From Shigella phage JK36, in sequence record MK962754.1: a stretch of DNA of 64,000 bases. One strand, 5' to 3'. The position numbers were made by a program, and so were the translations under genes. Shown here piece after piece: positions 49,911 through 55,629 of the stretch. The notes beneath the pieces are model-generated. The model ran no database searches, was not told where the DNA came from, and saw nothing but the letters and a program-made list of their open reading frames with translations. The first letter of the stretch is position 1, and every line of letters begins with the position of its first letter.

Positions 49911-51038
49911 ATGGAAAAATTTATGGCTAAGTTTGGACAAGGATACGTCCAAACGCCATTTTTATCGGAAAGCAATTCAGTACGATTTAAATTAAGCATA
50001 GCGGGCTCTTGCCCGCTATCAACATCTCCTGCTTATATTAAGTTCCAGGATAATCCACTTGGGTCCCAGGTTTTTTCCGTTGGATTAAACGTTCGTGTAA
50101 TAAATCCTACAACGGGTGCAGTAGTTGAATCTAAGACATATAATTTCTCTACTGAAAACGACGCCACGTCAAGTGCATTTGTTACTTTCATGGACACATA
50201 TTCTTCAAATTTTATATTTGCTCTTGTTACTAACGCTAAAACAAACTTTCCGCCAGAAGTTCTTGCATGGTTTAATAAAGCCGGAAGTTCTGCTATTCCA
50301 TTAGCTCAACAAGTTTTAAATATAGTGGACATTTCTTATTCGGCATTTTATATTTCTGGTAAGAATGCTATAGCACTAGAACATATTAAGTATAGTAATA
50401 AGAAAACTTCAACCGACTATAGTACACCACTTGATGTTGTGTACGACACGATCGATGATATTGGTGCTACCGGCTTCCCTAGTCGTACGTACGAATCGAC
50501 AGACACATTTTTATCTGCTGTTGGAGGTACTAATAATGAAATTAAAAGGATGCCTACAACGTCCATTATTACACCTCTCGCTGGGTATAAATTGAAGCCT
50601 GGAGATTTCCTTTATATGAAATTCCAACTAATGGCCGATGCTGATTTGTTAGCACAAGGGACGACACGACTTTCTATTCGTTTCTTTAAATCTCCTTCTA
50701 CTTCACCTATTTCATTTAAGGATATAAACTTTGATGGGGGCGCAGGTGAATGGAAGATATATGAAGACTACATAGAAATTCCTGCTGGTGCTGACGGGTT
50801 CACGATTTATTGTTATCGTACAGCTCCAGTAGGGCAAGGTGGATTAAGAAACGTTATATTAACTGAAGTATCATGCAATGGAAGCGTTTCAAAACCTGCT
50901 GAGTTTGGTATAAATGGTATTCGTGTAAATTATGTTTCAGAATCTTTAAGTGCTCCAGACATAATGACATTACCTACTCAATCTTCAACTTATACCGGTA
51001 AGGTATTTGGACAAGAATTTAAAGAAGCATCAGAATAA
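49911..51038 (+). CDS. 35: long tail fibre hinge connector gp35
   Basis: 375 aa, synteny. Confidence 0.88.
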   Translation: MEKFMAKFGQGYVQTPFLSESNSVRFKLSIAGSCPLSTSPAYIKFQDNPLGSQVFSVGLNVRVINPTTGAVVESKTYNFSTENDATSSAFVTFMDTYSSNFIFALVTNAKTNFPPEVLAWFNKAGSSAIPLAQQVLNIVDISYSAFYISGKNAIALEHIKYSNKKTSTDYSTPLDVVYDTIDDIGATGFPSRTYESTDTFLSAVGGTNNEIKRMPTTSIITPLAGYKLKPGDFLYMKFQLMADADLLAQGTTRLSIRFFKSPSTSPISFKDINFDGGAGEWKIYEDYIEIPAGADGFTIYCYRTAPVGQGGLRNVILTEVSCNGSVSKPAEFGINGIRVNYVSESLSAPDIMTLPTQSSTYTGKVFGQEFKEASE

Positions 51039-51774: not shown

Positions 51775-54700
51775 ATGGCTACTTTAAAACAAATACAATT
51801 TAAAAGAAGCAAAACCGCAGGTGCACGTCCTGCTGCTTCAGTATTAGCCGAAGGTGAATTGGCTATAAACTTAAAAGATAGAACTCTTTTTACTAAAGAT
51901 GATTCAGGAAATATCATCGATTTAAGCATTTCCGCTGGCGGTAATATCAGTGGAAATATCACTCAAACTGGTGATTATACACAGACTGGAAAATTTAATT
52001 TAATTGGCCCACAGATTATAGCAAGTGGTGGATATATTGAGTTTAATTATCGTACTACTGGAAGTGGGGCTTGGTCCGGTCAACACACTGCAAAAGCTCC
52101 AATTTTTGTAGATTTAAGCTCAGCTACTTCCACATCTGAATATAATCCTATAATTAAACAGCGCTTTAAAGATGGAACTTTTTCATTAGGTACTTTAGTT
52201 TCTGAAGGTTCGTTAAAGATTCATTATATTGATGAAACTGGTCAATCTAAATATTGGACATTTGCGCGCTCAGGTAATTTTCAAGTTGATTCTGGTAATT
52301 TATTAGTATCTGGTGGGTATTTAGTCGCTCAGAGTAATATTGAAACAAGAACAGGTTCTTTGATTGGTCCATCTGTTGTAACTAAAAATATTTCATTTGA
52401 TACGAAAGCGTTTGGACAATACGATTCGCAGTCATTAGTTCAATATGTTTATCCTGGAACTGGTGAAACAAACGGAATTAATTACCTTCGTAAATTCCGT
52501 GCAAAATCTGGTGGTACGATTTATCATGAATTAGCTTCTGCACAAACCGGAAAAAGCGATGAACTGTCTTGGTGGACCGGTAATACAGCCGTTAATAAAC
52601 AAATGGGCCTTCGCAATGATGGGTCTTTAGTGTTGCGACGCTCACTCGCAATTGGTACAATTACAACAGATGAAAACATTAATAATTACGGCTCCACTGG
52701 AGCAATGGGTGAATGCTATATAGTCATTGGAGATGCCGCAACTGGTGTATCATATAAAAGATCTGGTGTATATGATTTAGTTGCTAATGGTCTTTCTATC
52801 GCGTCTATTACTCCTGACAGTTTCCGTAGTACTCGTAAAGCATTATTTGGACGTTCAGAAGACCAAGGCGGAACATGGAATATGCCTGGAACGAACGCTG
52901 CGCTTTTATCAGTTCAAACACAAGCTGATGGAAACTCTGCCGGTGATGGTCAAACCCACATTGGATATAATTCTGGCGGTAAAATGAATCATTATTTTCG
53001 TGGTACTGGTCAGATGAATATCAATACCCAACAAGGTATGGAAATTAATCCAGGACTGTTGAAACTAACAACCGGTACAAACAATGTAATGTTTTATGCT
53101 GATGGCGGTATTACATCCACTAAGCAGCTTTCAATATATAATGGTGTATATTTAGCAGCTAATAATTCTACTGCTGGGCTAACATTCGCTCCAACTACTA
53201 CAGTTGATGGCACTAAGCAAATTTTGTGGGAAGGCGGTACTCGTCCTGGTCAGAATAAAAGCTATGTAACTGTTAAAGCGTGGGGTAATTCATTTAACGC
53301 ATCTGGCGATCGTAATCGTGAAACAGTTTTTGAAGTAGCTGACGGACAAGGTTATTATTTTTATTCCCAACGCGTAGCCCCAAGCGGCTCAGAAACTACT
53401 GGTCCTGTTGTAACCCAGTTCAATGGACAAGTTAATGCTAGAGGAAGTATTATTACTGACGGAAGTTTTAAAGTTAATGGATTAAGCACTTTAGTCGGTA
53501 ATGTTACCATGTCTAACGGTTTGTTTGTCCAAGGTGGTTCTTCTATTACTGGACAAGTAAAAATTGGTGGAACAGCTGATGCATTAAGAATTTGGAATGC
53601 CGAATATGGTGCCATTTTCCGCCGTTCAGAAGCATCATTACATATTATCCCGACTCCTAAAGATGCCGGTGAAAGTGGTGGAATAAGTAATCTCCGCCCG
53701 TTAAGTATTAGTCTTAATAATGGTATGGTACAAATGCGCCATTCCGTTACATTAGGTGATGATGGTGCAGGCGGTAATATGGTGACGGTTGATAATGATT
53801 CTAAAGTTATGGTAATGACGACTAATAGCCGTATTAGTCCTAACTTCCGTATGCAAATTGGACAGTCGTCTTATATTGATGTGGAATGTACTGATGCTGT
53901 GAGACCTGCTGGAGCCGGTTCTTTTGCTTCACAGAATAACGAAAACGTTCGCGCTCCGTTCTATATGAATATTGATAGAACAGATACAAGCACTTATGTT
54001 CCTATTGTGAAACAAAGATACGTTCAAAATAATAGTTGCTATTCTATTGGTACTTTAATTAATGGTGGTAACTTTAGAGTTCATTATCATGAAGGCGGTG
54101 ACGGCGTTTCTACTGGTGCTATTATAAAGGATCTTGGATGGGAATTTAATAAAAACGGTGATTTTTATTCTCCTGGTAAATTAGGCGCTGGAAATATTAG
54201 AATAGGTACTGATGGTAATATTACTGGCGGAACTGGTAACTTTGCTAACTTGAACACAACTATCGAATCATTAAAAACCGATATTGTTTCAAGTTATCCT
54301 ATTGGAGCTCCTATTCCATGGCCTACAGATACTCCTCCTAATGGTTACGCTATTATGGAAGGACAGACTTTTGATAAGTCTGCATACCCAAAATTGGCTA
54401 TAGCTTACCCATCTGGAGTAATTCCTGATATGCGCGGGCAAACTATCAAAGGTAAACCAAGCGGTCGTGCTGTATTAAGCGCAGAAGCCGATGGTGTTAA
54501 GGCTCATAGCCATAGTGCATCGGCTTCAAGTACTGACTTGGGTACTAAAACTACGTCGAGTTTTGATTATGGTACTAAGACGACAAGTAGCTTTGACTAT
54601 GGCACTAAGACTAGCAATACCACAGGTAACCACTCTCATACTGTAAGCGGTACTACGAGTTCTGCTGGTGCACACCAACATGCGCGCTCAGGTCCTCAGA

Positions 54701-55050
54701 TACAAGCCGGCATACCCAATAACATATTCTATGACGGATATAATAGTGTAGGTGCAAACGCCAACGCTAAATTCACTGGAACCGTGAACGGTGCTACTGC
54801 AGGGTCGAATATAGCCAAAACTTCTTCAGACGGTGCTCATACCCATACTTGGTCTGGTACTACAAGCACTACAGGTAACCATGCTCACACAGTAGGTATT
54901 GGTGCTCATACCCATACTGTAGGTATCGGTGCCCACTCTCATTCGGTAGCGATTGGTTCCCATGGACATACAATAACTGTAAATGCCACAGGAAATACAG
55001 AAAACACAGTTAAAAACGTTGCTTTTAACTATATCGTTCGTTTAGCATAA
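51775..55050 (+). CDS. 37: long tail fibre distal subunit gp37 (receptor-binding tip with His-x-His boxes)
   Basis: 1091 aa; C-terminal GHSHTV / AHTHTW / [16 protein letters not shown] motifs as in T4-type gp37. Confidence 0.9.
54541..54615 (+). repeat. 30-bp tandem repeat (2.5 copies) encoding [10 protein letters not shown], with synonymous divergence between copies
   Basis: ggtactaaaactacgtcgagttttgattat / ggtactaagacgacaagtagctttgactat / ggcactaagact... Confidence 0.8.
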
Positions 55051-55055
55051 GGAGA

Positions 55056-55069
55056 GGGGCTTCGGCCCC
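55056..55069 (+). promoter_or_regulatory. intercistronic hairpin GGGGCUUCGGCCCC between 37 and 38 (no U-tract)
   Basis: GC stem-loop 8 nt before the gene 38 ATG. Confidence 0.5.
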
Positions 55070-55077
55070 TTCTAAAT

Positions 55078-55629
55078 ATGAAAATATATCATTATTATTT
55101 TGACACTAAAGAATTTTACAAAGAAGAAAATTACAAACCGATTAAAGGTATGGGTCTTCCAGCTCACTCGACATCTAAAAAACCTTTAGACCCTAAAGAA
55201 GGCTATGCTGTTTTATTTGATGAACGCGAACAAGAATGGGTGTATGTTGAAGACCATCGTGGAAAAACAGTATGGACTTATGATAAGCAAAAAATTGTTA
55301 TTGACACTCCAGGTGCTCTTCAAAATGTTACTACAGAAGAACCTGGTGAATTTGACATTTGGACCGGTGACGGGTGGAAGGAAGATGAAGCATATAAACG
55401 CGTAGTTCAACGTGATAAGAAAATTCATGAACTCTATAAATTATTCAGTGTTTTAAGTTCTCTTATTGACGCAGAGGTTGCTAATAGAGAAGAAAAACGA
55501 AAATTTAAAGAGCTCAAAAAATTCTTTGCCCTTTTAGAAAAACATGAACATCTTGGCGGTGAATTCCCTAAATTCCCTGACCTTGAAAACAAATCTATTA
55601 TCAAAGCGATTATAAATATCTTTAAGTAA
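55078..55629 (+). CDS. 38: gp38, T4-type tail fibre assembly chaperone
   Basis: 183 aa (same as T4 gp38); N-terminus MKIYHYYFDTKEFYKEENYKP matches remembered T4 gp38. Confidence 0.9.
   Translation: MKIYHYYFDTKEFYKEENYKPIKGMGLPAHSTSKKPLDPKEGYAVLFDEREQEWVYVEDHRGKTVWTYDKQKIVIDTPGALQNVTTEEPGEFDIWTGDGWKEDEAYKRVVQRDKKIHELYKLFSVLSSLIDAEVANREEKRKFKELKKFFALLEKHEHLGGEFPKFPDLENKSIIKAIINIFK
55611..55618 (+). promoter_or_regulatory. late promoter TATAAATA upstream of t (inside 3' end of gene 38)
   Basis: exact TATAAATA about 20 nt upstream of the t ATG. Confidence 0.55.

Follow-up and report, generated by a model that had tools for sequence, protein, structure and literature searches.

The distal subunit of the T4 long tail fibre, gp37, has a stem formed by residues 882-931 and 960-1009 and a tip formed by residues 932-959, and residues of this tip bind LPS and OmpC (PMC6957217). 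The structure of the T4 gp37 tip is available as PDB 2XGF (Bartual et al. 2010). Protein 37 of phage TuIb (GenBank X55191) was described in J Mol Biol in 1990 (Montag, Hashemolhosseini & Henning). A different arrangement is found in the T2/T6/S16-type system, where a gp38 of about 260 aa caps gp37 and acts as the adhesin (PMC3157838). Here, we analysed 64,000 nt of Shigella phage JK36 (MK962754.1), hereafter called the window, with a focus on a short tandem repeat near the 3' end of its gene 37. Our analyses indicate, with a probability of about 0.85, that the gp37 receptor-binding tip encoded here is a TuIb-type allele of the T4 family, with a collar, an iron-studded needle stem and a head, in which the extra repeat copy would be one half of an additional stem layer.

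The best full-length match to gene 37 was from phage KMB23, with 92.6% nucleotide identity across the full gene. The C-terminal 278 aa of window gp37 (aa 814-1091) matched residues 2-242 of the 2XGF chain (phmmer, E=2.8e-94), and a global alignment with T4 gp37 contained 674 identical residues. Window gp37 is 65 residues longer than T4 gp37 (1091 vs 1026 aa, the latter from NC_000866), and alignments to the 2XGF sequence and T4 gp37 revealed insertions of +10, +15, +3 and +9 aa in the tip. Of the extra residues, 18 are in the head, 19 correspond to one stem layer (10 + 9), and 28 are located far upstream in the fibre shaft. The downstream gene product, gp38, is 67% identical to T4 gp38 and matches Pfam Caudo_TAP and phrog_105 ('tail fiber assembly', E=4.9e-50). 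These results bear out a preliminary description of this DNA, which had reported a gp37 longer than that of T4, tip included, and a T4-type chaperone gp38. They also uphold its view that gp37 itself carries the specificity, because gp38 is of the chaperone type.

Table 1 Features of the gene 37-38 region, with positions in the window.
Feature	Position	Strand	Basis
Gene 37, long tail fibre distal subunit	51775..55050	+	1091-aa ORF
Collar domain, N-terminal part, aa 839-909 (= T4 811-881)	54289..54501	+	Pfam, 2XGF match, PMC6957217 limits
Ascending stem strand, aa 910-969, 60 aa (T4: 50 aa)	54502..54681	+	Alignment to T4/2XGF
Three His-less 10-aa ascending units (T4: two)	54532..54621	+	Tandem Repeats Finder array, unit DNA
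Head (tip) subdomain, aa 970-1015, 46 aa (T4: 28 aa, 932-959)	54682..54819	+	T4 equivalence
Descending stem strand, aa 1016-1074, 59 aa (T4: 50 aa)	54820..54996	+	Alignment to T4/2XGF
9-aa HxH units VGIGAHTHT / VGIGAHSHS / VAIGSHGHT	54892..54972	+	
C-terminal strand returning into collar, aa 1075-1091 (= T4 1010-1026)	54997..55047	+	
Gene 38, T4-type tail fibre assembly chaperone, 183 aa	55078..55629	+	

Tandem Repeats Finder reported a 30-bp x 2.7 array at 54534-54613 (74% matches, score 83). Read in frame, copy 1 (54541-54570, GGTACTAAAACTACGTCGAGTTTTGATTAT) and copy 2 (54571-54600, GGTACTAAGACGACAAGTAGCTTTGACTAT) encode the same 10-aa peptide. The two copies differ at 8/30 bases, in 6/10 codons, every difference being synonymous, and the longest identical run that they share in register is 8 nt. 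A partial third copy (GTKT...) begins at 54601, and the whole repeat spans 54541-54612. The tandem repeat with one peptide and diverged DNA, as first noticed, is thus real, with two full copies and a partial one in the frame used there, which correspond to the three ascending units at 54532-54621. Chance or low complexity is ruled out as its origin, since conservation of the peptide extends to hundreds of homologues. Relative to T4, the extra 10 aa were placed at aa 938-947 in alignments to both the 2XGF sequence and T4 gp37.

Eight HxH motifs are present in window gp37, three before the head (aa 911, 953, and 967) and five after it (aa 1022, 1036, 1045, 1054, and 1063). The run of motifs listed in the preliminary description is present in full; the first motif, KAHSHSA (aa 911-913), had been overlooked. 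The spacings are 42, 14, 55, 14, 9, 9 and 9 residues, both in the window and in TuIb-type tips. Tandem Repeats Finder also resolved the VGIGAHxHx run as a tandem array (27 bp x 2.1, 54892-54949), which had gone unmentioned. Together with NHAHT, the 9-aa units provide four HxH at 9-residue spacing (three in T4), and the alignments to the 2XGF sequence and T4 gp37 place the extra 9 aa in this descending strand. Pfam PF03335 (Phage_fiber) matches the stem in six stretches (E=7.7e-9, 35.3 bits vs a cutoff of 20), and PF07484 (Collar) matches aa 844-891, preceding the needle (E=3e-11, 43.6 bits vs a cutoff of 24). At the sequence level, the ascending and descending strands match in length (60 vs 59 residues here, 50 vs 50 in T4). 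An AlphaFold2 monomer of the C-terminal 278 aa, built from a 54-sequence alignment, was too poor for use (mean pLDDT 56, pTM 0.21), as expected for a single chain of an intertwined trimer.

The repeat had been taken to belong to the receptor-binding tip. Alignment to 2XGF and the domain limits of PMC6957217 place it immediately C-terminal to the collar on the ascending strand of the stem, far from the head; T4 gp37 residues 895-914 fall in the stem by the same limits (PMC6957217). Among homologues, the mean pairwise identity fell from 84% in the ascending unit to 69% in the descending units and 27% in the head. In these proteins with unrelated heads, no other segment of the module was conserved as well as the ascending repeat. 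The preliminary description had named two observations that would speak against its view of the repeat, a structural model that puts it outside the receptor-binding tip and a segment that is invariant among phages with different host ranges, and the position and conservation of the repeat agree with both. Judged from these alignments, the repeat is a conserved structural spacer in the needle stem and not the receptor-binding end.

We propose that the polypeptide would travel out along the stem, make the head and come back. The trimer stem would form a six-stranded antiparallel needle, with one Fe ion expected on the axis at every HxH triad. In the collar-proximal half of the stem, the axial HxH sites would be supplied by the returning strand, in 9-residue units (xGIGxHxHx), and the outgoing strand would run past these levels in 10-residue units that lack His (xD[LY]GTKxTxS, the repeat peptide). 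The extra 10-aa copy would then represent half of one extra stem layer, and the extra VGIGAHSHS unit, which follows about 110 residues later, would supply the other half. The added layer would result in eight predicted Fe sites rather than seven, and in 60/59 rather than 50/50 stem residues per strand. The repeat peptide may be kept constant by packing constraints and not by receptor contact. Two published contacts in T4 gp37, G921-F970 and H929-G964 (PMC6957217), imply an antiparallel register of i+j about 1891-1893, which puts the T4 ascending units (893-912) level with the descending HxH at 980, 989 and 998. We infer the exact spatial pairing of the 10-aa and 9-aa units from these two T4 contacts and from length co-variation. 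Fe occupancy and a physical lengthening of the window needle are predictions from sequence.

The co-variation was profiled in 167 non-identical homologous needles, in which layers were scored by the spacing between HxH 1 and HxH 2. Counting units with the regular expression D[YL]GTK gave 31 apparent exceptions, all of which were degenerate motifs, such as DLGNK or DYGQK, and this count was replaced by the spacing. A spacing of 32 aa was accompanied by three terminal 9-spaced HxH (79/79 needles), 41-42 aa by four (81/81) and 52 aa by five (6/6). Longer stems fit too, with six motifs at a spacing of 62 aa and seven at about 73 aa. By spacing, the layer counts were balanced in 166/167 needles; the sole outlier (P0226) has lost one HxH, yet is balanced by unit count (2 units vs 3 motifs). 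The count of 14-spaced HxH ahead of the head invariably matched that behind it (0/0 for 86 needles, 1/1 for 79 and 2/2 for 1). We distinguished 65 head families, nine of which were found on more than one stem length and were balanced in every case, and the family AQRAWRxGGGGNG occurs with 2, 3, 4 and 5 stem layers. As the same heads sit on different stem lengths, all balanced, the layer rule is independent of descent.

The rule also holds at 85 of the 86 loci for which DNA was compared. The exception is a metagenomic locus (L002, IMG/VR contig 3300030021_000020), whose three ascending units are accompanied by just three 9-spaced HxH. Its middle descending unit equals a fusion of two TuIb-type units, with the 5' end coming from unit 2 and the 3' end from unit 3; units 2 and 3 have 24/27 nt in common. 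The locus may reflect an unbalanced stem that is tolerated, or the contig may be defective or an artefact. No prior statement of the balanced-layer rule was found in the accessible literature. It provides a modest design rule for tail-fibre and tailocin tips, in which 10-aa ascending and 9-aa HxH descending units change in step (about 170 distinct needles, at least nine head families). A more ambitious version, which we regard as doubtful, is that the needle stems of a very large fibre family obey a strict 'balanced layer' grammar, [12+10n] [14]xa head [14]xa [9]xn with n=2-6 and a=0-2, where layers would be gained or lost only as matched pairs up to >100 residues apart, and where stem length would also tune reach through surface polysaccharide. 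If stem length does so, layer number would be a second host-range axis that is independent of the head and open to engineering.

The 46-aa head, located between HxH 3 and HxH 4, is hypervariable and is probably the receptor-binding site and the host-range determinant. The interval 54300-55050 had been proposed as a likely host-range determinant. This holds in that the interval contains the hypervariable head, but the repeat is excluded, and the head accounts for just 18 of the 65 extra residues. At the DNA level, this head is 99-100% identical to those of teqhad and Bas40, and infection by Bas40 was shown experimentally to depend on OmpC (PMC8594841). Because the head is nearly identical to the TuIb and Bas40 heads, OmpC is probably the receptor of the window phage as well. 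Only near-identical heads allow such a prediction of the receptor, given that T4 also uses OmpC although its head is unrelated. Host-range engineering should aim at the 46-aa head, with the repeat and its partner unit kept unchanged or altered only together.

We consider it improbable that the repeat, or the stem length that it sets, determines host range, with a longer needle reaching OmpC through thicker LPS or capsule and a copy number tuned to the host. Duplications in the T4 adhesin domain reportedly expand host range, going by the title of work by Tetart et al. from 1996, and we counted this in its favour. The natural stems of 2 to 6 layers indicate that length is evolvable, and work on Bas63 has put forward a scaling between the number of HxH and the length of the needle (PMC12609058). 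However, the nine head families on differing stem lengths indicate that length and head type assort independently, and OmpC serves T4, with 2 units, as well as Bas40, with 3 units, on E. coli K-12. The repeat peptide is also near-invariant across unrelated heads. Furthermore, each of the 60 best-matching cultured phages, with tip identities of 89% or more, matched across an identical span of 558 nt. The check suggested initially, for repeat-number variation in relatives, thus turned up no variation in length among these close relatives from different hosts.

The two full copies of the repeat share 22/30 nt and 4/10 codons, compared with the 22.9 +/- 2.1 nt and 4.3 codons expected for random synonymous encodings (P(<=22)=0.42). 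As the codon divergence equals the random synonymous level, the duplication is old and under purifying selection, which was one of the two explanations offered initially. We interpret the synonymous sites as saturated because the duplication is ancient. The positional orthology of the copies across loci is weak (21.9/30 same-position vs 21.5/30 cross-position identity), which fits saturation and does not date the duplication. Other lineages retain 24-27/30 identity between copies, and one locus (L001) has copies that are identical at 30/30 positions.

It is also unlikely, in our judgement, that the divergence itself was selected on the grounds that identical tandem DNA invites slippage or unequal crossover, which would unbalance the stem and kill the fibre. 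Locus L002 resembles the product of such an event, and the run of only 8 identical nt between the window copies would suit this idea. However, 22/30 is not below neutral saturation, so age alone suffices, and the 24-27/30 identity in other lineages and the identical copies of L001 are the opposite of enforced divergence. A recent or hypermutable contingency locus, which would make fibre length variants within a phage population, could be suspected from an in-frame tandem repeat in a host-recognition gene and from L001, which shows that identical-DNA copies can occur. This notion is effectively refuted by the conserved, diverged repeat DNA: the copies are at synonymous saturation (22/30 nt, with the 8-nt longest shared run), the 90-nt array is base-for-base the same in TuIb X55191 (J Mol Biol 1990) and recent isolates, and the 60 closest cultured tips show neither a length change nor copy-number variation.

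An old stem-layer duplication in a TuIb-type tip remains the preferred reading, and we compared it with known systems. The T2/T6/S16-type adhesin gp38, which has glycine-rich motifs and hypervariable segments, was rejected, as window gp38 has 183 aa and belongs to the assembly-chaperone family, and gp37 retains the full collar-needle-head. The laboratory duplications of Tetart et al. from 1996 are said to be recent tandem duplications of a specificity segment bounded by His boxes. This type of host-range duplication was also rejected, since the window unit is a His-less 10-mer outside the head, ancient and common to prophage fibres. The PF03335 model, a 14-residue phage tail fibre repeat, covers the HxH-containing stem units of the window but contains neither the His-less 10-aa unit nor its pairing to the 9-residue units.

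The tips of lambda Stf and prophage side tail fibres (the 'T4- and lambda-based RBP family', PMC9659904) have the same collar-needle-head, with 10-aa units and HxH boxes at 60-70% identity, and obey the same layer rule as the window. They differ in their N-terminal shafts and heads and are borne by temperate siphoviruses, myoviruses and prophages, not by T-even phages. The T4 gp37 tip is closer, having in common with the window the collar-needle-head, the HxH iron motifs, the 10-aa unit, the C-terminal return strand and the gp38 chaperone. As in a T4 gp37-type tip, we found in the window homology over the whole module, a collar, HxH on both sides of a variable head, matched strands and gp38 downstream. 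The T4 tip has two ascending units, three nine-spaced HxH, seven HxH in total and a 28-aa head, whereas the window has three ascending units, four nine-spaced HxH, eight HxH in total and an unrelated head of 46 aa.

The TuIb-type tips, which also occur in teqhad, teqdroes, Ozark and the BASEL phages Bas40 FelixPlatter, AdolfPortmann and FriedrichZschokke, are the closest of all. The C-terminal 186 aa of window gp37 are 96-98% identical to those of TuIb, teqhad and Bas40 (96.2% for TuIb, 97.3% for Bas40), and the TuIb-type phages share the T4-type gp38 downstream. The window has the DNA of the 90-nt ascending repeat base for base in common with TuIb, teqhad and KMB23, and Bas40 departs from it at 1 nt. 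The differences lie elsewhere: the third descending unit is GIGAHSHSV in the window and GIGAHTHTV in TuIb-type tips, the last ~190 nt are only about 89% identical, and the remainder of window gp37 is a different mosaic. The window allele and its repeat are an already known, routine TuIb-type tip, a T4-like tip that has been sequenced since 1990.

The window is a portion of a T4-like (Tequatrovirus) genome with the gene order g35, g36, g37, g38, t. A 24-kb stretch upstream of these genes (20000-44000, the genome backbone) is 99.3% identical to phage APCEc01. Tandem Repeats Finder detected two arrays in gene 37, which encodes the distal subunit of the long tail fibre. The first array encodes a 10-residue peptide that lacks histidine. 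Its two full copies mismatch at 8 of 30 bases and 6 of 10 codons, all of them synonymous, and a partial third copy (GTKT) follows the second. The preliminary description had every particular of this repeat right and also correctly reported a T4-type gp38 chaperone and a gp37 longer than the 1026 aa of T4. The HxH motifs it listed are all present, and the overlooked AHSHS at aa 911 brings the total to eight.

Domains and repeats of gp37, with the adjacent gp38
Feature	Residues (aa)	Nucleotides	Remark
gp37		51775..55050	1091 aa ORF
Collar	839-909	54289-54501	
Ascending stem	910-969	54502-54681	
30-bp x 2.7 array		54534-54613	Tandem Repeats Finder
Repeat peptide, full copies		54541-54570 and 54571-54600	In frame
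Head	970-1015	54682-54819	
Descending stem	1016-1074	54820-54996	
27-bp x 2.1 array		54892-54949	Tandem Repeats Finder; absent from the preliminary description
Return into collar	1075-1091	54997-55047	
gp38			183 aa; 67% identity to T4 gp38; matches Caudo_TAP and phrog_105 'tail fiber assembly'

Two neighboring features were also recorded. The hinge protein gp35 (49911-51038) has a Pfam match to ILEI (interleukin-like EMT inducer, PF15711) at aa 58-129 that barely exceeds the curated cutoff (29.6 bits vs 27). Between the gp37 stop and the gp38 ATG (55048-55080; ATG at 55078), a strong Shine-Dalgarno-like AAGGAG overlaps the gp37 stop codon and precedes the ATG by ~20 nt, with a GGGGC-UUCG-GCCCC hairpin (MFE -15.6 kcal/mol, z=-2.4) in between. 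T4 keeps the same arrangement ahead of gp38, which may bring the Shine-Dalgarno sequence near the start codon.

The C-terminal 278 aa of gp37 align with the protein sequence of the crystallised T4 gp37 tip (2XGF, E=2.8e-94). In T4, the collar D10 comprises residues 811-881 and 1010-1026, the stem 882-931 and 960-1009, and the tip 932-959, and mutagenesis has shown that LPS and OmpC are bound by tip residues 933-953 (Islam et al. 2019, PMC6957217). Since the chain turns back on itself at the head, the trimeric needle is six-stranded, and iron is held on its axis by seven HxH triads (PMC12609058; PMC9659904). The T4 unit of the repeat peptide (residues 895-904) begins 13 residues into the ascending stem strand, beside the collar and ~30 residues ahead of the tip. 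Mapping the window's domains onto the T4 limits therefore places the repeat in the stem and not in the receptor-binding head. The repeat is the most conserved element of the tip module and is common to proteins with unrelated heads. Distinct needles paired at random share on average 84% identity in the ascending unit, 69% in the last descending units and 27% in the head. By the preliminary description's own standard, such conservation counts against its reading of the repeat.

Two inter-strand contacts in T4 (G921-F970 and H929-G964; Islam et al., PMC6957217) both give an antiparallel register with i+j of about 1891-1893, consistent with the stem limits (882+1009, 931+960). Read this way, T4 residues 893-912, a His-less ascending stretch made up of two xD[LY]GTKxTxS units, share axial levels with the descending HxH motifs 980, 989, and 998, spaced 9 residues apart. 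Every 10-residue unit on the ascending strand is thus predicted to require one 9-residue HxH unit on the descending strand as its partner. The window agrees, with three ascending units and four 9-spaced HxH, compared with two and three in T4.

We tested the pairing on homologues found among 5.8 billion proteins and among representatives of 50%-identity clusters, the latter searched exhaustively, comparing the HxH 1-HxH 2 spacing with the count of terminal 9-spaced HxH in 167 non-identical needles. A spacing of 32 aa went with three terminal motifs (79/79), 41-42 aa with four (81/81), and 52 aa with five (6/6). The sole outlier (P0226) has lost one HxH, yet retains two units against three motifs. 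Longer-stem proteins beyond the parsed set prolong the series (62 aa with six motifs, ~73 aa with seven). A second layer type, a 14-residue HxH unit beside the head on both strands, is always balanced (before/after the head: 0/0, n=86; 1/1, n=79; 2/2, n=1). Six tip-bearing E. coli proteins (P0016, P0021, P0028, P0053, P0054, P0063) carry the source names 'terminase large subunit family protein' or 'tape measure protein', probably reflecting gene-call fusions or misannotations at prophage ends.

Because related sequences are not independent, we clustered the heads into 65 families; nine occur on more than one stem length, and every one is balanced. One family (AQRAWRxGGGGNGxYIDRN...) sits on 2-, 3-, 4-, and 5-layer stems (P0193, P0133, P0081, P0179), which makes a naturally occurring set of tips that are similar apart from the length of the needle. 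The number of layers is therefore independent of head type. At the DNA level, the rule holds in 85 of 86 loci. The exception, L002 (IMGVR_UViG_3300030021_000020, needle near locus 1501-2307), is the only unbalanced stem seen, with three 9-spaced HxH motifs against three ascending units. Its middle descending unit, GGTATTGGTGCTCATACCCACACGGTA, joins the 5' end of a TuIb-type unit 2 to the 3' end of unit 3, and the T4 unit has the identical sequence. Unequal crossover that removed 27 bp, or recombination with a phage of shorter stem, seems to lie behind it, and the locus may be an artefact. We interpret the repeat, from comparative sequence evidence, as a structural spacer of the stem, paired with an additional predicted iron-binding layer and distant from the head that binds the receptor.

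The copies themselves are consistent with long retention. As a null, two random synonymous encodings of the peptide were drawn many times, with codon usage taken from the five window ORFs that run from gene 35 to t. Such pairs share 22.9 +/- 2.1 of 30 bases and 4.3 of 10 codons, close to the observed 22 and 4, so the copies are at synonymous saturation. Selection for codon divergence is not needed, since this sharing matches random expectation. The duplication is therefore old and the peptide is kept by purifying selection, one of the options first proposed. One Ser pair (TCG vs AGT) can interconvert only via a non-Ser intermediate, which points to great age or to independent origins of both units. 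A conserved peptide with diverged codons is the norm for the family, and several prophage-type lineages combine full peptide identity (10/10 residues) with 22-27/30 shared bases. The copies in L001 (IMGVR_UViG_2706795401_000001, a 170.8-kb T4-like contig) agree at 30/30 bases and differ from T4's single copy by 1 nt, whereas the descending partner units have diverged, which suggests that the ascending unit was recently re-duplicated or underwent gene conversion.

When gp37 is aligned globally with its T4 counterpart, all 65 extra residues can be placed: +17 net in the variable N-terminal shaft (aa 55-215), +11 around aa 653, and +37 in the C-terminal module. The last comprise an additional repeat-peptide copy (+10), +15 and +3 from HxH 3 to HxH 4, and an additional VGIGAHSHS unit (+9). 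By this alignment, the greater part of the extra length lies outside the head. The preliminary reading is thus partly supported: the view of an old repeat under purifying selection stands and the interval holds the likely host-range determinant, but the repeat is in the stem and most of the extra length is outside the head.

Window-by-window comparison of gp37 with phages teqhad, Bas40, and KMB23 revealed mosaicism. The N-terminal half of gene 37 matches KMB23 at 99-100%, and over 52203-52926 the identity is 97-100% with KMB23, compared with only 67-89% for teqhad and Bas40. Three stretches (52927-53076, 53677-54270, 54858-55007) have only 70-89% identity to any of the three. The stretch 54571-54857, which starts with the second repeat copy and takes in the head, is 99-100% identical to teqhad and Bas40, against flanks of 70% (54124-54270) and 89% (54858-55007). 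The head therefore moves as a cassette with conserved collar and His-box sequence at its borders. Such movement agrees with the title of a reference cited in PMC3157838, Tetart et al.

As sequence, this feature was known before. Earlier work has described the tip family and its hypervariable specificity segment of 30-70 aa (PMC9659904), Pfam curates the His-box unit as a repeat (PF03335), and the idea of HxH number scaling with needle length has been published (PMC12609058). In the part of the literature covered, we found no explicit statement of the pairing of 10-aa His-less with 9-aa HxH units, a rule that follows directly from the solved fold. Matches to the 60 closest cultured phages listed all cover the same 558 nt, and hence there is no copy-number variation among these close relatives. 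The C-terminal 186 aa of gp37 share 96-98% identity with TuIb, teqhad, and Bas40. The 90-nt ascending array is the same base for base in TuIb gene 37 (X55191, Montag et al. 1990), teqhad, and KMB23, and differs by one base in Bas40 FelixPlatter, a phage that requires OmpC (PMC8594841).
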